From positions 2,108,001 through 2,172,000 of the forward strand of contig OX597829.1 of NCBI GenBank assembly GCA_951406725.2: a stretch of 64,000 bases of DNA. The letters run 5' to 3'. Under the pieces are notes generated by a model. It saw only the letters and a list, made by a program, of their open reading frames with translations, did no database searches and had not been told where the DNA came from. The translations under genes and the position numbers were made by a program. Source of the stretch: Octopus vulgaris. Its lineage: Eukaryota. This document shows positions 16,544 to 45,438 of this stretch, piece after piece; within the stretch, counting starts at the first letter, position 1; every line of letters begins with the position of its first letter.

Positions 16544-17195
16544 TCAGAGGAGAAGAGTAGAAATTACCTCTTTTTCAGCTCTACAACAATGTCCAGCAAA
16601 CTGGACTCTCCTACCTTTCACAAGAGATGATACAGGTAGTAATTTCCCATATATTTGTACTTTGGTTGGATGACGCTTCCACGAGAGATTTTGAGTTCTC
16701 AGAAGGAGGCGAGTGTAGTTTCCATCCAACCGCTTCTCAAGCTTCTTTGATAACGTCCAGGTTTCTGAGACATATAGTAGAATTGGTTCAACTGTGGCTT
16801 TGAAGACTTGAAGTTTGAAATCTCTACTTAGATTTGATGACCAGATATTATGCATATCATTACAGGCTGACCAGGCCATACCCTTTCTAGTTAGAAAATC
16901 TTTTTCAGATGATGATATGTATGACCCAAGATATTTGTAATCAGAAACCATATTTAAGAGCGTATTGTTGAGAGTATGGATGATGGACAGGCACTGTTGG
17001 ACAGGCACTTTGTTTACATATTCAGTCTTCTCCCCTTCTGCTCGCGATACCAGAGGGCGCATACTCTCCCACCCTGATGTAATCTCCAGGGATACAGACA
17101 TCCAGCAACAGGACCTCCGTAATGCTATGATGGACCGTGAAGTCTGGCGTAACATAGTAAATTCCATTGTCTCGACCACGGTCGAACAGTGTTGA
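16544..17195 (+). mobile_element. RTE LINE copy with 5' inversion (16544-~17030 antisense, ~17034-17195 sense), 14-bp TSD
   Basis: Same family as 43440-44977. TSD TGATAATATAAAGT at 16530-16543 and 17196-17209. Inserted into a degenerate SINE. Confidence 0.88.
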
Positions 17196-19271
17196 TGATA
17201 ATATAAAGTATCTGTGAAGCACTGGGGTTGATGGTTTAGAATAATCCTTTCCCTTTACAATGCTGGTCGTGTTCCACAATTTGAAACCATTTTCCTAATC
17301 TAAACAACTATATCAGAAGCATTTGCAATTCTAAAAAGTTTTCATTCGGTAAAGGTTATGAAAGATAAATTCCACCAATATTTCTTGTGTTGAAATGCAT
17401 GTACATCGTCAACAGGAAAACTACTTTCTCCACTTCTTCTGAAGATATTTTCTTGCAGATTGCATGTATATTGTCACAGTAACAACATTGTGTAGCATCA
17501 TGAGATCATGTTATGGACGTAAACAAAGAGTCTCGCTTCAAAATTAATTGGTTTCGAGTTCAGTTGGAATTGAATTAAAGTTTTATGGGTGAAATTTGTT
17601 GGACGGAAACAGCGTGGAAACACAGAGGAAGAACGGTCCTTCGTCCTGAGCAATAGGCTCAATACATCGCTCGATTTAACATCTCTCGCATAGCCTTTTA
17701 ATACCTTTAGCGAAATTTGCTTTGCTACAAGAATTCATATCAGGTCTTCGGGCTGGAGATAACTTCCTAACTTCAAACTGTCCAGTCTCGGAAATCCTGT
17801 AACAAAATAAGTCTAAGAAACTCACCTAACCCTACTGATTTGATTAAGTGATGTAAAGAGCAAAAGTGCCTTCAGGATATTTTGTGGGACTTGTTTGTGA
17901 AGTTTCCAACTCCCAAGTAATATAATCGGTGTTTTCAATAGCATCGTGAATAGACAATCTTCCGTGTCTATTTGTTAAACAGGTAATTGGATTGTAAAAA
18001 TCACATCCTTTAAACGGTTGCAAATCTTACTCTTTCTGTCGATGCTAGCCAAGATCTCCAAGTTTAATGAAAACATACAGATGCATGCCTTCTTCTTTTC
18101 TTTTTCTTTTTATTATGCTGGGTCTCTCCTTAGAGTCTAGGTTGAGATAGTTTGGTTCAACAGTTTTAGTTTCAGATTCACCTGGAAATACATTATTAGG
18201 TGAGTACTTGAGTAATTCATTGCTTGTCACTAAGAGGTTGTTCTCTTCACCTTGAGCTAATGAGTTATGAGTTTGTATTTTGTGATGTTGATTAATTATT
18301 GCTAACTAAGTGATATCAATGCCACTCTCCAAAAAGGTTGTATGGTTGACACTTACATGACATGGCAGTGTGGTGATACTTACTATACTCGTAATCTGTC
18401 TGGGCTGATCCTAAACTTCTTCCCCTGTTTTTTCTTCTGCGATCGAGCTAGTCAATACCACTGTCTCCGTTAGTTTCTAGACCTTGTAGGCTTTAATATC
18501 TCTGGAGTAGATTTCTTGTTAAGCCAGCGCCCTACAAAATCCGATTCTATTCCAGCCCACTGTACACCATATAGCATGATTCTAAACTATCAAAGATATG
18601 CCGGGAATCGCATCGGTTTACCTATCTCTGTCTATGCCACCAACGACAAGTATCAACCTCCTTGACAATACCTTCAACTTTGTGATTAACTGAATTATAT
18701 ATGTGAAGATCTTTATCAAACCCATTACACAATTTCAAATCCTTCTTCTCGGTGCTGTCACTACCATCCAGTTTCCAGTGTTCTGCTTGTTGCAATAGAC
18801 AACAAATAAGGCAGAAGCGAATACGTCTGCTATTTAATAATATGGTTAGTGTGGCAGGCCATCAACCTTTGATGATTTGTCTCCACAGCTAGTGATCATT
18901 TCGTCTGCTGAAGTCGGCTTTTCATCCTTCATTCCTGGTTGAGAGTCGCGGTAGGCCATCGAAGTAGGCGTCGAAGTTCAATATCTCCACAGCGACACTC
19001 TTCATTCGGTCAAATGTTCTCGGAAAGCAGTAGATATTTTATTGGAATTGGATAGCAAGAGAATTGTGACCCGTAAAAGACTGGATAGTGGCTTTGTTGC
19101 TATATTATATGTCTGCCACATAGGCTCATCAAACGGCTCTCGTGCTCTTGCGTTTCGGCGTACGTGCTATGACACGAGAAATACATCTTTCGTGTTCCGA
19201 GGCGATAAAATGGTCGAGGGCCATTCTCAGCGCTAGTACATTATTTGTGATGCTTCTCCCATGCATCTCTC

Positions 19272-19687
19272 ACCATCATTGTTCGACCGTGGTCGAGACA
19301 ATGGAATTTACTATTTTACACCAGACTTCACGGTCCATCATAGCATTACGGAGGTCCTGTTGCTGGAAGCCTGTATCCCTGGAGATTACATCAGGGTAGG
19401 AGAGTGTGCGCCCTCTGGCATCGCGAGCAGATGGCTTCCAGAGGAGAAGAGAAGAAATTACCTCGTTTTCATCTCTACAACAATGTCCAGCAAACTGGAC
19501 TCTTCTACCTTTCACAAGAGATGATACAGGTGGTAGTTTCCCATATATTTGTACTTTGGTTGGATGACGCTTCCACGAGAGATTTTGAGCTCTCATAAGG
19601 AGGCGAGTGTAGGTTCCATCCAACCGCCTCTCAAGCTTCTTAGATAACGTCCAGGTTTCTGAGCCATATAGTAGAATTGGTTTGACT
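19272..19687 (-). mobile_element. 5'-truncated RTE LINE 3' fragment
   Basis: PILLYGSETWTLSKKLERRLDGTYTRLL...IVSTTVEQ* is nearly identical to the C-terminus of the 43448 ORF. Confidence 0.9.
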
Positions 19688-21150
19688 GATTGATTTACTG
19701 ACTGATTTACCAGCTCCTCCTCTTCTCTAATGATCTCTGCCGCTACTTCTTTCAAAAAAAAGCTACGAAAGTGCATCTTTCTATTTAGCGAGACCCCACT
19801 ACCTGACGCCCTATGTCATTTCCTACTGAACCAATTCCGTCATCCGGTCTTTGACAACTTTATTCGCGGAGAATGATGCGTTCGGCTTCTAGTTATGAGC
19901 TCCTGCCTCTTGGTCCTCTCTTGGTTGATTTAACATATCACGATGTTGTGGTCAGTGTAGTCAACTTCACGAATCTGTGGACAACTTGACCTTAAATCCT
20001 ATCGACTTACTTCAAAATTTTAAGTACCAACAGAAAGATTCGGTGCGATTTGTCCACATTAACGCACTAAAGTTTCAAGATAAAAGCTGTCAGATATTTG
20101 GAAATACCTGGACAGGTCTACAAGGCCTTTACTTGCTCCTTTCCTTTCACCTTCTCCCAGACAATTCATAACGCTAACAAATGACTGTGTTGTTATGATT
20201 GGTTGTATTGTTGCTGTTATGCTGGCAGAAACGTCAAAGCGTCGGAAAAAATATATTGTTCGCAGTATTTGTTCCGAATATTTAGGTTCTGAGTTCAAAT
20301 CACTCCAAGGCCAACTTTGCCTTTCAGCTTTTGTGGGTACGAATATGCCAATCAGTTACTGGAGCAGATGTGATTGCTGGTCTTATGTCAAAAATTAGAA
20401 AATATTGGGCACGCCTGAAATTGAGGATAAGGGGACACTCGACTGCATCAACTCCAATGCTCAACTGCTACTCATTTTATCGACCCCGAAAGGATCACAA
20501 ACAATATCGATCACGGCGGAATTTGAACTCGGTGATTGCAGGGAAAAACAAGAAAAACGAGAATTACTAGAACATGAAGAAGCATTATTCAACAAGGAGT
20601 TACACAAACAACTTCATGTGACCACAATTCAAGTTGCAGGAAGACATAGATAGGACTCGTTAAAAAAAGGGAACACTTTAAAAGGAGATTTTAATCGGTA
20701 TTTTCATTAGCATCATGAATAGACAATCTTCTTTGCCTTTCATCCTTTCGGGGTCGATAAATTAAGTACCAGTTACGCACTGGGTCGATATAATCGACTT
20801 AACCCCTTTGTTTGTTCTTGTTTGTCCCCTCTATGTTTAGCCCCTTGTGGGCAGTAAAGAAATAAGAAGTCTACAACAACAGGCAGAAAGGGGAGAATTC
20901 GCAGTTCTATAAAAAAGGAAGTGGTTGTCCTCCAACAGGAAGTCTTTTACTTTAACACATACAGAAGTGGGAAGCGAAAGTAAACCTAACTGACCGAATG
21001 CAAGATACCGTACAGTTTCTTCTGTGGTCATTTACCCAACAACCCAGTAGATGTACGTTGTAGGTCGCTTGCACTTATACAGCACACTCTTCCATACTGA
21101 TAGAAAAGAAAGAAAAAGAAAACAAGCGGATCGCCTGCTTTAATGAATAA

Positions 21151-25334: not shown

Positions 25335-26246
25335 GTGTGTGTGTGTGTGTATGTATGTATGTTTGTATGTATGTGTGTACGAGCATGTAGAGAGGAAAGA
25401 GAACGAGAGAATGAGTAAGTTAGTGAGAGAAATTTACGCAGCGCATGCGCATGCACGTGCACACACAGTTGAAGAACCTCACGTGAATTCTTCAGAAATC
25501 TAACAGAATTCGAATTTTATTTTCTGGACGTCATAGGACTACGTGTGTGTATGTGTGCGCGTGTTCACGTTAATGTATGTATGTGTGTATGTATGTATGT
25601 ATGTATACGTATGTGTGTGGGCGTGCGTCAGTTAATTTCATGTACATTCCACGTTCCCCTAAAAATAAAATAGGATAAAATAGAAAATGGACTCGTCCAT
25701 ACGTTAACTCGGGAAAGAACGCTGAATGTCTCATTTCAAATTTTCAAGGCAAAGCAAGAGGTATGTAAGTCGAAAAGAAATGGTTTGATATATATACGTA
25801 TATATATGACACAATAGTAATAACAATAACAATAATGATTTCTTTATTTCTTGTTTATTAATGGTGTCGACGAGATAAGATTTTGGCATTCGTTTCCTGT
25901 CTCTCTCGCGGTTAAACATTTTATCTGTATCAAAACCTGACAACAAAATATATCTGAAAAAAGAAGAGAAGAAAAAATAATTATTACAATAGTACAGTAA
26001 CAATAATAACGACAATAACAACGAGAGTTATTTCTAACATTTTGAAATTCCAGCAACAAAAACAATCATAATTATCGTATAATATTAACAACCGTCGCAT
26101 TATTTTTATTTATTTAGTAATAATAATACTTTGACCGTGTTTATATATATTAGTTACAGGACTGAATAGCGTTTGGTTTCTACTATAACTGTAACATCAT
26201 CGACAAACATTTCACGATTTTAGTCTTATAAACAATTGGAGAAATT

Positions 26247-27719
26247 ATGCCATTTTCGAACTCACCATCTGAAAATGCATATTCTTACCCAAACAGTAAT
26301 GTATCGTCGACCGAAGAAACGCAAGAAGCAACTCAAAGAACTCCATTACCCTCACAGATAAGACTAAAATATGACCGAGACTTCATTCTTAAGTTACAAT
26401 ATAAAGAAGCTTCCCTCACCAAACCTGTTGGACTTCCAGACTTACCGGAAATATTATTCAAGAAACCACAAATTCCGAAGCAACTTAAATACAACAAAAT
26501 ACGGCGAGACATCATACCGTTTAAATGTTCTAAGAATATGAAATCTGTGGATGAATATGTGAATGATTCGGAGGACGAAGAACTTAATACGAAAATGAAG
26601 AATATTGCAAGCAGACTAGCACCGGAAAAATATAAATCCGTTTTATCACAGATACGTGATATTCAAATTGATAAAGAGAGTAAATTGGTAGCTATCATGA
26701 ATCTTTTGTTTGAAAAGGCAACGAGTGATCCGATGCTTTCTACGGCGTATGCTTACGTATGTCGGTGTCTGACTTTGAAGAGAGTTCCATCAATTCACTG
26801 CCACAAGGAAGTGGTGAATGTCCATAAAGTTCTTAATAAGAAATGTCAAAAGGAATTCGAAAAATACCAAGTTGAAGAAGCAATGTTGAATAAGAAATTG
26901 CAGCAAATTGAAGACACCGACAACAATATAGAAAAACTGAAATTTCAAAAGGAACTTGTGAAGGATATTGAAATTTTCAAAAGGAAATCACAAGCAAACG
27001 TTCGGTTTCTTTGTGAATTGTTTAAACTTGGTGTGTTGAGGGAAAACACGATGCAGAAATATATTAAAAAGATGCTTCAGTCTTTATCAGAGAATAGTTT
27101 GGAAAGTGTGTGTCTGTTGTTCAATACAATTGGTGAGAGACTTGATACGGGAAAGAAGTTTAAAATGGATGTGTATTTCATTCAATTAAAAAGCATCGCA
27201 GAAGAGAATTCGACTCCTAACAGACTGAAATTGATGATCGAAAACCTAATTAGTTTACGTGAAAATCAATGGAACCAAAAAGAGGCTGAGAACCATACAA
27301 AGCAAAAAGGAATTACAAGTGTAAAAGACAGTATGAAAGAGGAAACCCTGAAGGTGATGGCAAATAGCTACTATGAGAACAAGGTCAAAGATATTTACCA
27401 AAACGGTGACGGTTCCGTTGCTTCTAACATGGGAGATATATTCTCAAGCGATCCTGGGACTAAAACTAGTTCTTCATATCAACAGCCACAACAACAACAA
27501 CAGCAGCAGCAACAACACATCAAAGAGGAGTACGTGAAACCTGGTTATATGAAAATCTTCGATATTGATGCTCAAAACAAATGTATGGATTTGGCTCAGC
27601 TTGAGAGGAAATATTGCAATTTGGTCTACGACGGCACAACCAGAGCATCTGCCAGGGGAGATGTGATGGTGCCAAACTGTAGCCCAAACATCATTCGAGA
27701 AACCAAAGAAGCTGTTTAA
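26247..27719 (+). CDS. EIF4G: Intronless eIF4G-like protein (eIF4E-binding motif + MIF4G/HEAT-1 domain + Q-rich tail), probable retrogene
   Basis: 490-aa uninterrupted non-repetitive ORF with an in-frame TAA upstream at 26229. KYDRDFILKLQ..KPVGLPDL matches the eIF4G 4E-binding region (human KRYDREFLLGFQ..KPEGLP). LLFEKATSDPMLSTAYAYVCRCL, CQKEFEK, NVRFLCELFKL and LISLRENQW match the eIF4G MIF4G domain. Confidence 0.9.
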   Translation: MPFSNSPSENAYSYPNSNVSSTEETQEATQRTPLPSQIRLKYDRDFILKLQYKEASLTKPVGLPDLPEILFKKPQIPKQLKYNKIRRDIIPFKCSKNMKSVDEYVNDSEDEELNTKMKNIASRLAPEKYKSVLSQIRDIQIDKESKLVAIMNLLFEKATSDPMLSTAYAYVCRCLTLKRVPSIHCHKEVVNVHKVLNKKCQKEFEKYQVEEAMLNKKLQQIEDTDNNIEKLKFQKELVKDIEIFKRKSQANVRFLCELFKLGVLRENTMQKYIKKMLQSLSENSLESVCLLFNTIGERLDTGKKFKMDVYFIQLKSIAEENSTPNRLKLMIENLISLRENQWNQKEAENHTKQKGITSVKDSMKEETLKVMANSYYENKVKDIYQNGDGSVASNMGDIFSSDPGTKTSSSYQQPQQQQQQQQQHIKEEYVKPGYMKIFDIDAQNKCMDLAQLERKYCNLVYDGTTRASARGDVMVPNCSPNIIRETKEAV

Positions 27720-27816
27720 TAATAGGTTCGCTGCTGATGCATGGATTCTGTTATTGTCGAAAGATGTCAATCGGTGGTGAGACGGAGAAATGCGAAATCT
27801 AATTGAGCTTCGGCAG

Positions 27817-30864: not shown

Positions 30865-31195
30865 GGGGTTGGATGAAAATGATTTTGATATGGTGTAGGA
30901 CTGCTTTGGCAGTAATTACAGCTTGAATTCTATGAGGTATGGACTTGTACACAGTCTGAATTGTTTCCAAAGGAATTTTTGTCCATTCTTCAGCTAAAAC
31001 AGTCTCCAGTTCTTGTAGTGATGATGGTGGAGGATATTGACTCCTTACTTGTTTTTTCTAAAATACACCATAAATGTTCAATAATATTGAGATTTGGGGA
31101 CTGTGGTGGCCAGATAACATGCTCAACTTCACTAGAATGTTCCCCGTGCCATTCAGTAACAACTTTAGCTGTGTGAATTGGTGCATTATCATCCA
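30865..31195 (-). mobile_element. Tc1 transposase remnant
   Basis: DDNAPIHTAKVVTEW...WPPQSPNLNIIEHLW are DD34E Tc1 motifs. Frameshifted. Confidence 0.85.
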
Positions 31196-31453
31196 AAAGG
31201 GGCAATACCCCGAAACGCGTCTGTAGCTGCCGGTCAAGTAGTGTGGAGCGACTGACCTCCCTTGTTCGAAGGTTATATGGATACAGTTTGTGTATCAAAT
31301 AGCTAACTTAAGGCGATGGCCTCATGGAGCTAATAAGCGGACAGCTTTTTTCTTATTTTTATAAGAATGCCATATTAGTATGGCGATAACTATTATTTTC
31401 CGGGAACGCTGCCGCTGTTCTCTTTTAGAGAGACTTAGTTATTTTAATATTTC

Positions 31454-40074: not shown

Positions 40075-41816
40075 ACGAGATTCTTTCAGTTTTCGCCTAC
40101 CAAATACACTCACAAAGCTTTGGTCAGCCCGAGACTATATAGTGGTGCTGCCACGCAGTAGGACTGGAACCCGGAACCTTACGGTTATGAAGCAAGCTTC
40201 TTATCACACAGCCACGCATGCGCCAATAAGAAACATATTCACTGTTTAGAATTGAAGATGATCCGGAGTGGAGAAAACATTGCAGAAATTATTGATGGGA
40301 TCGTGAATGGCGAATAGACTTTACCAAACCTCGATGACTGATGACTGACTGGCCAAACAATTGGTCAAGCAATCGATTGATTAATTGGTTAAATAAATTA
40401 ACCAATTCACTAATAACTAATAAAGAAATGAAATAGAACCAGTGTGTGTGTTTATTATTGGCATAATGACCCTTCCGAGATTCAACAAAATTTGTTTGAA
40501 CACACGAGCTTACATCATGAATCGTACAAATCAAAAACAGAAACGATCTGTTTTAACATCTCCTTTTAATCTCCAACTGCGATTTTCGGTTTTCCAGATA
40601 ACGGTATTTAATGCATTTAAAAGGCGGCCAACTAGCAGACACGTTAGCAGCAAAAGAATGTCTCGCGAAACTTATTTCTCTCTCTGTGTTCTAAGATCAA
40701 ATTGCACCGAGGTCAACTTTGCATTTTATCTTTTCCGTTCCGATAAAAATGAATGAAGCCAAGGCGGTGTATTGGTGAAACCTTAAGACTGGATGCCTTG
40801 TGCTATTTGTCATGCTCTTAGCATTCTCATTTCAAATCCTGCCATGGCCCACACTACTGGTACACTTAACTCGTAGCCCAGTTTTGCACTAGCGTCAAAC
40901 ACCTTGGGTATCTTTGGCAGGGTCTGCTCTATTGCAAGCATTTAGGTCCAGTTTCTAATTTCCTAAAACATCTCTCCCTTCTCTCCACCCCAATGTCTTG
41001 GAGTCCCTATAAAAGATTACGAACATTGCCTTCCTCTTGACAAAAAGTCTAGAAAAAAAATCTCTTAAGATGGTGAACTGGCATAATCGTTAGCGAGTCG
41101 GTCAAAATGCTTAGCGGTATTTCGTCTGCCGTTACATTCTGAGTTCAAATTCCGCCGAGGTCGACTTTGCATTTCATCCTTTCGGGGTCGATAAATTAAG
41201 TACCAGTTACGCACTGGGGTCGATGTAATCGACTTAATCCTTTGTCTGTCCTTGTTTGTCCCCCTCTGTGTTTAGCCCCTTGTGGGTAGTAAAGAAATAG
41301 GTACTTTATCCGGATCTTTATATTTTGAATTCAAACTCTACCGAGGTTGACTTTGCTCTTATCTTTTCATGGTCGATAAAATAAATACCAGCTGGATATC
41401 GGGGTCGATGAAATCGCCCTTAAGCCCCTTGTCTTAAAATTGTCAGTAAAAATTTGAAACATCACTTTTTTTCTTATTTCTACGTCGTTTTTTTTTTTTT
41501 TTTGCTTTTTCATGCACGGTACGCAGCCAAGGGAGAGAACTCAGTGCCTAGTTTGCATTCTTTGAATCAGAAATAAATCGCCAAGATTGAAATATTTCCA
41601 TCTGAGTTTAATATTCAGCTATCAGCGGTAGTGTGCGTATGGCATCCTGAAGAATTGGTAAATCATCATGCGTTCCGGTTGAAACAATAGACAAAGGAGA
41701 ATAACTTACATCAAGATGATTGAATGCGGAGAGATCTTAAGAATAAGTATTTGAACATCCATTCAAGTTTGAATCTTATATTCATGGGAATATAATTATT
41801 ACTCTAATATTACAGT

Positions 41817-41888
41817 TCCTCGGTAGTATAGTGGTAAGTATCCCCGCCTGTCACGCGGGAGACCGGGGTTCGATTCCCCGCCGGGGAG
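41817..41888 (+). tRNA. tRNA-Asp-GTC: tRNA-Asp (anticodon GTC)
   Basis: 72 nt TCCTCGGTAGTATAGTGG...GGTTCGATTCCCCGCCGGGGAG. The acceptor stem pairs, the anticodon GTC lies at 41850-41852, and A and B boxes are intact. Nearly identical to canonical metazoan tRNA-Asp. Confidence 0.97.
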
Positions 41889-41897
41889 GCGAGTTAC

Positions 41898-43439: not shown

Positions 43440-44977
43440 CATCATCATCATTGTTCGACCGTGGTCGAGACAATGGAATTTACCATGTTGCGCCAGACTT
43501 CACGGTCCATCATAGCATTACGGAGGTCCTGTTGCTGGATGCCTGTATCCCTGGAGATTACATCAGGGTAGGAGAGTGTGCGCCCTCTGGTGTTGCGAGT
43601 AGATGGCTTCCAGAGGAGAAGAGTATAAATTACTTCTTTTTCAGCTCTACAACAATGTCCAGCAAACTGGACTCTCCTACCTTTCACAAGAGATGACACA
43701 GGTGGTAATTTCCCATATATTTGCATTTTAGTTGGATGGCGCCTCCACGAGAGATTTTGAGCTCTCATAAGGAGGCGAGTGTAGGTTCCATCCAACCGCC
43801 TCTCAAGCTTCTTTGATAACGTCCAGGTTTCTGAGCCATATAGAAGAATTGGTTCGACTGTGGCTTTGAATATTTCAAGTTTGAAGTCTCTACTTAGATT
43901 TGATGACCAGATCTTATGCATGTCATGACAGGCTGACCAGGCCATACCCTTTCTAGTTAGAAAGTCTTTTCCAGATGATGATATGTATGACCCAAGATAT
44001 TTATAATCAGAAACCATATTTAAAGGTGCACTGTTGAGAGTGTGGATGATGCAATCACTGTTGGACAGGCACTTGTTTATGTATTCAGTTTTGGTCTCAT
44101 TGAGGTAAAAACCTACACAATTTGAGGCTTGTTCAAGAGATTGTAAAAGAGACTGGGCATTGGAGAGAGAATCACTGATAAGAGCGATGTCGTCAGCAAA
44201 GTCAGTGTCTGTCAAGTACTCAGCTGGGTGTCTGGAACTTCTTCTTGGTTTTATTTCAAAGCCCTTGCCAGAGATGGTATCAACTGACATACGTAGCACA
44301 TAATCAACAACAATGATGAAAAGAAATGGGGCGAGTGTGTCTCCCTGCAGTATTCCGGCCTCGATCGAGAAAGATGATGTTTCTCTATCAGGGGTTAAGA
44401 TGGTTGAAGACGTATCTGTGTAGAGGACCTTGATGGCAGAAATAATTTTGTCTGGTATCCCATAGAGCTTAAGGATTTCAAACATCTTGTACCTATCTAC
44501 AGAATCGAACGCTTTAGAAAAGTCTACAAATACCATTGCAAGATCGCGATTAAATGCTTTTGATTCTTCAATAAGTCTGCGCAGGCATAGTATCTGGCTC
44601 AGCGTTGAGCGCCCATGTCTGAATCCATTTTGGTTCTTTCGGAGCAAAGGTTCAACAAAAAGGACAAGACGGTTTAGGATCAGTTTGTTGTACAGTTTTG
44701 CAGCAATTGACATTAGAGATATGCCCCTGTAGTTGGTGACGAGGGACAAATCGCCTTTTTTGGGTATTGGAATGATTTGAGATTGGTGCCAAATCTTTGA
44801 AGCGACAAAGGTGGAAAGTGTGTGGTTGCAGAGGTTAAGCAAAAGTGTGTGAAATCTATCATCCTTCCAAATCACAGCCGGAATGTTGTCGGGACCAAAT
44901 GCTTTCGAGGCTTTTAGTTGCTTGGTGGCTGCTGTTAGTTCAAATATGGTAAAAGGGGAGGTGTTGATGTCCAGCAA
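43440..44977 (-). mobile_element. 5'-truncated RTE-clade LINE with intact 509-codon reverse transcriptase ORF
   Basis: RT motifs YRGISL, QNGFRHGRST, FVDFSKAFDSV, GILQGDTLAPFLF, FADD and YKYLG. The ORF ends directly in a (TGA)n tail. No endonuclease domain is present. Confidence 0.93.
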
Positions 44978-45438
44978 ATGAATGTGACGGTCAACGTTTA
45001 TCTATTAAAACCCTTGCTTTATCTGTATGGTACTAATAATAACTTATGATAGGTAATTCAGTGCGGTACCGTATTAATAAATATTACGACAGATTCGTTG
45101 GTGGATGCTGTATTAATGATAACGATTATGATACGATTAGGATTAGTGTGGTGACAATTATGGTACAAAAGTTAGTGTTAGAGTATTTAATTAAATACGT
45201 TATACTAGGAAGGAATACGGAAAACAGAAAGAGAAAAAGTGTGAAACGAGGCTCCAGCAGGGGCTGGTGGCCATCCCTGCTGTACTCTTTCGCCACAACT
45301 TTCTCTCACTCTTTCTTCTGTTGGCCTGCTCGCTTAGCCAGCGGGGTGGTGTCATCTGAAGGCTAAAACAATGCGAAGCGCATTGTGACCAGCGATGTGT
45401 AGCAACACCTGATAGCCTGGTCGGTCACGGTGATATAT

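Follow-up and report, generated by a model that had tools for sequence, protein, structure and literature searches.

Canonical metazoan eIF4G, as represented by human eIF4G1/3 and the octopus parent gene described below, is a protein of about 1570 amino acids in which an eIF4E-binding (4E) region is collinear with a MIF4G domain, and which carries a tryptophan ahead of this domain, eIF4A-contact residues, and MA3 and W2 domains. To our knowledge, the truncated relatives of eIF4G described so far are either viral or, in the case of DAP5, devoid of the eIF4E site. DAP5/eIF4G2 is a truncated relative with a MIF4G domain that keeps the tryptophan, MA3 and W2 and has no eIF4E site (PMC9177959). The giant-virus protein vIF4G is highly truncated, carries a YX3II motif, and is active in a complex with its own vIF4A and vIF4E, as reported in a preprint (bioRxiv 2025.09.30.678621). 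Mextli binds eIF4E, competes with eIF4G, and is built in the order MIF4G-like domain, KH domain and C-terminal 4E motifs (PMC4573856). Repressors of the 4E-BP type (4E-BP1, Cup, 4E-T) have a bipartite eIF4E-binding layout. Drosophila eIF4G-2 is a long protein that partners testis eIF4Es. This testis paralogue is a second eIF4G gene in an animal (bioRxiv 2021.12.19.473358).

Here we describe mini-eIF4G, a further second eIF4G gene, which lies in a 64,000-nucleotide stretch of octopus DNA (the window) and encodes 490 amino acids without introns. It shares with canonical eIF4G the fold and the collinear 4E region and MIF4G domain, but it has no N-terminal region, and the pre-MIF4G tryptophan, MA3, W2 and eIF4A-contact residues are absent or changed, which makes DAP5 its mirror image. 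Like vIF4G, it joins a short N-terminal 4E motif with isoleucine to a MIF4G domain alone, and viral clusters of 336-363 aa occur among the look-alikes of the related Sepia short protein; unlike vIF4G, it is a cellular gene that coexists with a full-length parent, and in trees its place is among the animal eIF4Gs. In contrast to Mextli, it keeps the eIF4G order and is by sequence a direct eIF4G derivative. It has the bipartite eIF4E-binding layout in common with the 4E-BP-type repressors and differs from them by its folded MIF4G domain; a separate 4E-BP is encoded on contig C7 of this genome. An eIF4E site kept while eIF4A contacts are lost, under strong selection in two cephalopod lineages, would amount to a natural test of an eIF4A-free cap complex, and mini-eIF4G is a candidate for cephalopod-specific translational control.

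Locus and domain layout

The window contains 42 ATG-initiated ORFs with a length of 100 aa or more, of which that of mini-eIF4G (490 codons and a TAA stop; Table 1) is the sole long non-repetitive one of host type. The remaining long ORFs are retroelement pieces or simple repeats, and a scan of a further 129 window ORFs gave no additional host gene. The reading frame is closed at its 5′ end by an in-frame stop six codons before the ATG.

Among relatives of solved structure, human eIF4G1 scores best (E 1e-48); its two collinear matches correspond to the 4E-binding stretch and to HEAT-1. Pfam places MIF4G at residues 116-340 (E 3.5e-31), with a sub-threshold 4E-BP-like match at residues 35-81 and no match to any other family, MA3, W2 and KH included, at E<=1; the parent eIF4G of O. 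bimaculoides scores for MIF4G, MA3 and W2. On the evidence of its MIF4G/HEAT-1 domain, which is closest to eIF4G, and of its collinear 4E region, mini-eIF4G is an eIF4G by descent. An earlier note on this DNA had described an intact 490-codon ORF with a 4E motif at residue 42 (YDRDFIL, with Leu changed to Ile), a short linker, and MIF4G without MA3 or W2. The frame and the motif (residues 42-48) are present as described, Pfam agrees on the domains at the threshold given, and the linker falls 53 residues below the parent's length.

Table 1. Positions of mini-eIF4G features in the window
Feature	Position	Strand	Basis or remark
Single-exon mini-eIF4G ORF, 490 aa	26247..27719	+	RNA-like contigs span it without joints
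Transcribed leader, at least 470 nt, no joint	25775..26246	+ (strand inferred from ORF)	X17 contig covers 25775-27474
Four upstream ATGs in leader	25780, 25806, 25835, 25861	+	Possible uORFs
Canonical eIF4E-binding motif YDRDFIL, residues 42-48	26370..26390	+	Ile47 for Leu; position-2 Arg retained
Probable lateral (non-canonical) segment for eIF4E binding, residues ~60-71	26424..26459	+	Alignment to 5T46 peptide; putative role
Short basic linker, residues 72-108	26460..26570	+	53 residues shorter than in parent; without W-K/R-P motif
MIF4G/HEAT-1 domain, residues 109-342	26571..27272	+	Pfam, model, alignments
Changed eIF4A-facing residues in MIF4G: A121, S122, A125, Y129, D161, L164, L329, N333			
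Tail part 1, residues 343-406	27273..27464	+	Possible relic of parent post-MIF4G exon; PKTIxxI lost
CAA/CAG repeat encoding polyQ, residues 412-423	27480..27517	+	None in Argonauta
Tail part 2, residues 425-490	27519..27716	+	Specific to octopods; shares 50/66 residues with Argonauta; matches no family
3′ UTR start	27720..27815	+	X1 contig crosses stop codon without joint; indels only past stop

Orthologues in other cephalopods

The protein differs from an O. sinensis record at 1 residue and from an O. bimaculoides record at 3 of 490 (14/330 for the parent gene). Argonauta hians has an orthologue of 488 aa that is 76% identical end to end, tail included. An exhaustive search returned a cuttlefish-type protein of 361 aa; Sepia pharaonis CAE1258657.1 and three Logan proteins belong to its cluster. 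A profile search returned a 365-aa protein on a 21.7-kb contig that is 86% identical to it. In these cuttlefish-type proteins a short linker joins a canonical motif, YNREFLL, to MIF4G, and the chain stops two residues past the last tryptophan. A word-index search for longer relatives gave 2 distant proteins only. The databases label mini-eIF4G proteins as ordinary eIF4G, and no published work on them was found among the titles and abstract openings listed, subscription journals and transcriptome supplements aside. As for paralogous copies, which the earlier note had wanted searched for, the genome searches, which give a lower bound, found no second one.

The eIF4E-binding region

An ungapped alignment pairs residues 28-74 with the eIF4G1 peptide in PDB 5T46, a complex with eIF4E (E 1.1e-5), and there are weak matches to 4E-BP1 peptides (E 0.16-0.24). 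The region lies upstream of MIF4G, collinear with eIF4G. Canonical and non-canonical eIF4E-binding motifs, and an arginine at position 2, are described in earlier work (PMC4573856). From the alignment we infer that mini-eIF4G would bind eIF4E through both kinds of motif. The exact pattern YxxxxL-phi is found in the Sepia protein and is absent from mini-eIF4G and from Argonauta (Ile47); an Ile-Leu ending occurs in 5 of 75 regex matches among the fetched proteins, and 4 of these are octopod mini-eIF4G. This isoleucine may weaken eIF4E binding.

Only two eIF4E-family loci were found in the genome, both as exon-sized pieces and both to be read as a lower bound, on contigs C19 (L016/L017) and C10 (L018-L020, with the C10 pieces 21 kb apart). 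The same lower-bound search gave no third eIF4E class. We take the C10 locus to be class I-like and the C19 locus to be 4EHP-like. No co-duplicated intronless eIF4E or eIF4A was seen among the loci examined. As to the suggestion that mini-eIF4G may bind an eIF4E paralogue, eIF4E binding is likely, and the need for a paralogue is not supported, given the canonical YxxxxLL motif of Sepia and the two eIF4E-family loci found.

The MIF4G domain and its eIF4A-facing sites

In an AlphaFold model built on an 11-row alignment, residues ~109-342 are folded, mostly at pLDDT 80-90 (under 50 at 121-124), and both ends are disordered. Its best Foldseek match is 8HUJ (E 2.7e-14), and the fold is that of eIF4G1 HEAT-1. 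The cuttlefish-type model is confident in the domain from residue ~150, with the first HEAT helix cut to 7 low-confidence residues.

Three eIF4A sites are described on eIF4G, and yeast W579 binds eIF4A, according to PMC9177959; two more yeast residues that bind eIF4A, T618 and E659, are given in PMC4138323. Yeast numbering was mapped by the 2VSO alignment with a chain offset of 570, which places T618 at A125, E659 at D161 and F838 at L329 of mini-eIF4G. Yeast F838 is presumably an eIF4A contact residue as well. Across 28 comparison rows, Glu occupies the E659 site in 28, Thr the T618 site in 25 and Phe the F838 site in 26. The short proteins have Asp or Tyr (Tyr in the cuttlefish type), Ala, Met or Thr, and Leu, Val or Ser at these sites, respectively; residue 329 is Leu in this protein and Val in O. 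bimaculoides and Argonauta. The sole tryptophan of mini-eIF4G is W342. Of 104 homologues, 78 have W[KRQ] ahead of the domain, and Trp is found there in none of the four short proteins checked. The parent keeps the equivalents of W579, T618, E659 and F838. Aligned to human eIF4G1, IASRLAP stands for ILNKLTP and RLKLM for RIRFM. These two replacements and the missing tryptophan, all previously noted at this locus, were thus recovered, with eIF4A-contact residues lost or changed. F93 was considered as a stand-in for the lost tryptophan and rejected, as the alignments place it there inconsistently.

Conserved domain columns are kept at 90 of 96 in the parent and at 52-55 in the short proteins. Three eIF4A-facing patches, which were drawn after the alignment had been inspected, hold 22 conserved columns, of which none is altered in the parent and 13-14 are altered in the four short proteins tested; with 27-30 of 74 columns changed in the rest of the domain, the patch excess is weak (Fisher p 0.02-0.10). 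Part of the interface is retained (R326, E156, K157, and K328, which matches yeast K837), and the change of E659 to Asp is conservative. The altered patches are almost invariant among octopods, which suggests a changed partner rather than decay.

Linker, tail and possible links to the ribosome

From the 4E motif to LFEK, mini-eIF4G spans 113 residues vs 166 in the parent. Its linker is basic (10 K/R and 1 D/E in 29 residues) and takes the place of human eIF4G 682-720, a longer segment that binds RNA and 40S (PMC11063902). Human positions were mapped by 6ZMW numbering (offset 289, checked on M775/A787). The same source gives human 1011-1104 as the minimal eIF3-binding region; in a tethering assay, a construct that lacked it failed to initiate (PMC11063902). 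Its equivalent starts ~20 residues past W342, appears degenerate in mini-eIF4G and is absent by length in Sepia; the motif PKT[IL]xxI is found in 62 of 104 homologues and in none of the 4 short proteins. Over its first ~60 residues the tail matches the post-MIF4G exon of the parent weakly, with a score reached by 2 of 1000 shuffles (95 of 1000 for Argonauta), and tail part 1 may be a relic of this exon, which covers the eIF3-binding region. A further contact, that of human M775-A787 with eIF3l, has been described (PMC10948362); the equivalent residues 128-140 of mini-eIF4G are largely kept, and this segment is alike in the parent and all short proteins.

The N-terminal motif KIVDP of the parent is absent from mini-eIF4G. 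We take KIVDP to be the PABP site of the parent. No Pfam family matches the tail at E<0.05, Atlas matches are all under 0.9, and pLDDT is low there; a DDX6-binding FDF motif was considered for the tail and is supported neither by Pfam nor by Argonauta. The tail had been called unrelated and polyQ-bearing. The polyQ is real and limited to Octopus, and "unrelated" may fail for the first ~60 residues.

Proposed role

Based on these comparisons, we give an even chance to the reading that mini-eIF4G is an eIF4E partner uncoupled from eIF4A, which would compete with eIF4G as a regulator of capped mRNAs. It would dock on eIF4E at capped mRNA, its MIF4G domain would recruit or activate eIF4A poorly, and it would vie with full-length eIF4G. 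With no N-terminal region, MA3 or W2, and with the eIF3-binding region apparently degenerate or absent, bound caps would be kept slow or stored. The re-conserved MIF4G surface might take another partner, such as RNA, eIF3 or another DEAD-box helicase. More tentatively, mini-eIF4G might represent a new class of coleoid cap-complex regulator that holds eIF4E, sheds eIF4A at three sites and docks a different effector. Chosen mRNAs would then be switched between storage and helicase-independent translation, and the gene would be an old natural case of eIF4G becoming its own antagonist.

Rather more doubtful is a minimal active eIF4G, forming a lower-affinity eIF4F for a special mRNA set, free of PABP/MNK control. 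Two points speak against it: all three eIF4A sites are intact in the parent but altered in octopods and cuttlefish alike, and no intronless eIF4A partner was found among the three long DEAD-box frames read (of 12 loci). It is consistent, however, with the retention of both core modules and the basic linker, and with a domain that folds like eIF4G1 HEAT-1 and keeps some interface residues. Precedents are a truncated vIF4G with an Ile motif that works (bioRxiv 2025.09.30.678621) and the testis-specific eIF4G-2 of Drosophila (bioRxiv 2021.12.19.473358).

An activator of the Mextli kind, which binds eIF4E and reaches the ribosome via eIF3 or by direct 40S/RNA contact without eIF4A, appears unlikely. 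Mextli pairs a 4E motif with a MIF4G-like domain and promotes translation via eIF3 (PMC4573856), and the similarity of the eIF3l-contact equivalent (128-140) in the parent and the short proteins would fit such a route; however, the equivalent of the main eIF3-binding region appears degenerate or absent, and there is no KH domain.

Parent gene and origin

A full-length multi-exon eIF4G parent lies on the same contig, ~23 Mb away (C16 ~25.22-25.28 Mb). Over the homologous stretch it has nine AG/GT-bounded exons in an open frame, with 8 introns, and mini-eIF4G has 0. Seven of the 8 parent exon junctions fall in contiguous mini-eIF4G coding sequence, and 1 in the deleted linker. The proteins are identical at 142 of 373 positions (about 38%), and the only match at the DNA level is a 28-base repeat; with so little DNA similarity left, neither a poly(A) remnant nor a target-site duplication would be expected. 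We infer from this layout that mini-eIF4G would be the retroposed middle of a parent mRNA; duplication with loss of all introns is also possible. The term retrogene used in the earlier note accordingly becomes retrogene-like, at 8 parent introns vs 0 in this octopus. DEAD-box helicase ORFs of 687 aa (C11, L023) and 735 aa (C1, L026) each lie in one long frame as well. We take the first to be DDX31-like and the second to be DDX1-like. Since intronless housekeeping genes exist in this genome, intron loss need not mean specialisation.

MIF4G trees were computed from 39, 23, 23 and 19 hand-chosen rows from about 190 fetched proteins, and like the other comparisons they stand without a cuttlefish parent sequence or synteny. 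Where both kinds are included, the short proteins of octopods and of the cuttlefish type group together (100/98), with the octopus parent as their sister at 98/91 and 96/94 in two trees, and both joint trees carry a long-branch warning. Tested alone, the octopod short pair is unplaced and the cuttlefish-type pair joins the parent at 84/86. An AU test rejects a clade of octopod short proteins and octopod parent (p 0.007). Rare residues are shared at 15 sites by the octopod and cuttlefish-type short proteins, at 2 by the octopod short proteins and the parent, at 6 by the cuttlefish-type proteins and the parent, and at 9 by all three groups.

A single coleoid origin of the short gene, before the split of octopods and cuttlefish, is therefore strongly favored by trees and shared residues. 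This split dates to about 270-300 Myr ago. The gene, which had been called lineage-specific, appears on this evidence to be an old coleoid duplicate shared with cuttlefish instead. Separate origins of the octopod and cuttlefish genes, joined in the trees by long-branch attraction, would agree with the long-branch warning and with the low identity between the two types (35-36%). Such a history is distinctly improbable given 15 shared rare residues vs 2 for the octopod short proteins and their own parent, the AU result, and the Sepia short protein, whose best match in this octopus genome is the mini-eIF4G locus.

Two proteins of the limpet Patella vulgata (P0048, P0055; 440-475 aa) likewise consist of a 4E motif and MIF4G only, but they form a separate gastropod branch with a less diverged MIF4G domain, which suggests that molluscs acquired the short eIF4G build on more than one occasion. 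Their genes adjoin, and Pfam finds neither MA3 nor W2 in them. The O. bimaculoides parent records P0035 and P0157 are without the exon for the last HEAT repeat (SSRVRFM), which is intact in this genome (C16:25235379-25235676). The missing exon is probably an annotation or assembly gap; skipping of this exon would delete one eIF4A site of the parent.

Transcription and selection

The sequencing runs were classed as RNA-like by coverage pattern, the run type being inferred and not taken from the record. X17, X19 and X1, from two studies with two organism codes, cover the ORF by joint-free contigs of 1.5-1.7 kb at depth 630-1160; X10 covers it in two shorter pieces at depth ~5. Runs X21-X24 share no words with the locus and carry no weight either way. 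X17, X19 and X1 are taken as RNA because they leave most of the single-copy intron sequence at the parent locus without cover. The parent eIF4G exons are uncovered in these three runs too, which a human-sequence filter may cause, and they were not used to rank expression of the two genes. The X1 contig reaches 27815 or further and has all its indels outside the ORF, and cover in X17 and X19 ends at the CAA repeat (27474). Window 25620-25767 has no contig cover in any run compared. A 21-letter loose end before 25775 (X17) has no window match at 3 mismatches, so that there is no evidence of an exon further upstream. Matches of four full-length eIF4Gs to the window are confined to 26334-27302, and hence no MA3/W2 exon is seen in the 36 kb downstream, where short exons could be missed.

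Among the differences listed (40 of 101), all 19 X1 substitutions in codons 22-181 are silent, where 116 silent vs 427 replacement sites are available; in the tail, the single X19 change among the differences listed (40 of 101) is the replacement T357P. Judged by these substitutions and the intact orthologues, mini-eIF4G is under purifying selection and is a functional gene, no pseudogene. Identity to Argonauta varies along the protein: the N-terminus shares 16/40 residues, the 4E-binding block (residues 41-74) 33/34, the linker 25/34, three stretches of MIF4G 68/72, 63/80 and 75/82, and parts 1 and 2 of the tail 35/68 and 50/66. The 4E-binding block is the best-kept part and is canonical in cuttlefish, which makes it very unlikely that the protein works outside cap-dependent initiation, with another job for MIF4G and the 4E motif as a relic. 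That idea draws on the octopod Ile in place of the invariant Leu and on the many MIF4G proteins that serve other helicases (PMC4138323).

It is hardly credible that the locus is a processed pseudogene, whether recent or in decay, or that it is one part of a longer spliced gene: just 142 of 373 aligned residues are identical to the parent, but the ORF is intact in four octopod records with silent-only changes, RNA-like contigs cross the stop codon, and the window holds no other eIF4G match. Disruption in relatives, neutral change, absent expression or onward splicing had been named beforehand as grounds against a functional gene; what was found is conserved orthologues, silent changes, RNA-like contigs and no onward splicing.

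Other observations in the window and in relatives

Three minus-strand segments of the window (43448-45001, 16544-17254 and 19276-19815) belong to one non-LTR retroelement family, the longest with a reverse transcriptase domain, and a DDE transposase fragment lies at 30993-31307 (-). A tRNA-Asp(GTC) is found at 41816-41890 (+), with 60.4 bits in Rfam. Among the fetched relatives, P0006 and P0008-P0013 (gall wasp and several fishes) show two to several tandem MIF4G matches, and could be tandem duplicates or gene-model fusions. In P0004 (Blyttiomyces) the MIF4G halves are swapped, with the C-terminal half at 449-563 and the N-terminal half at 687-787.
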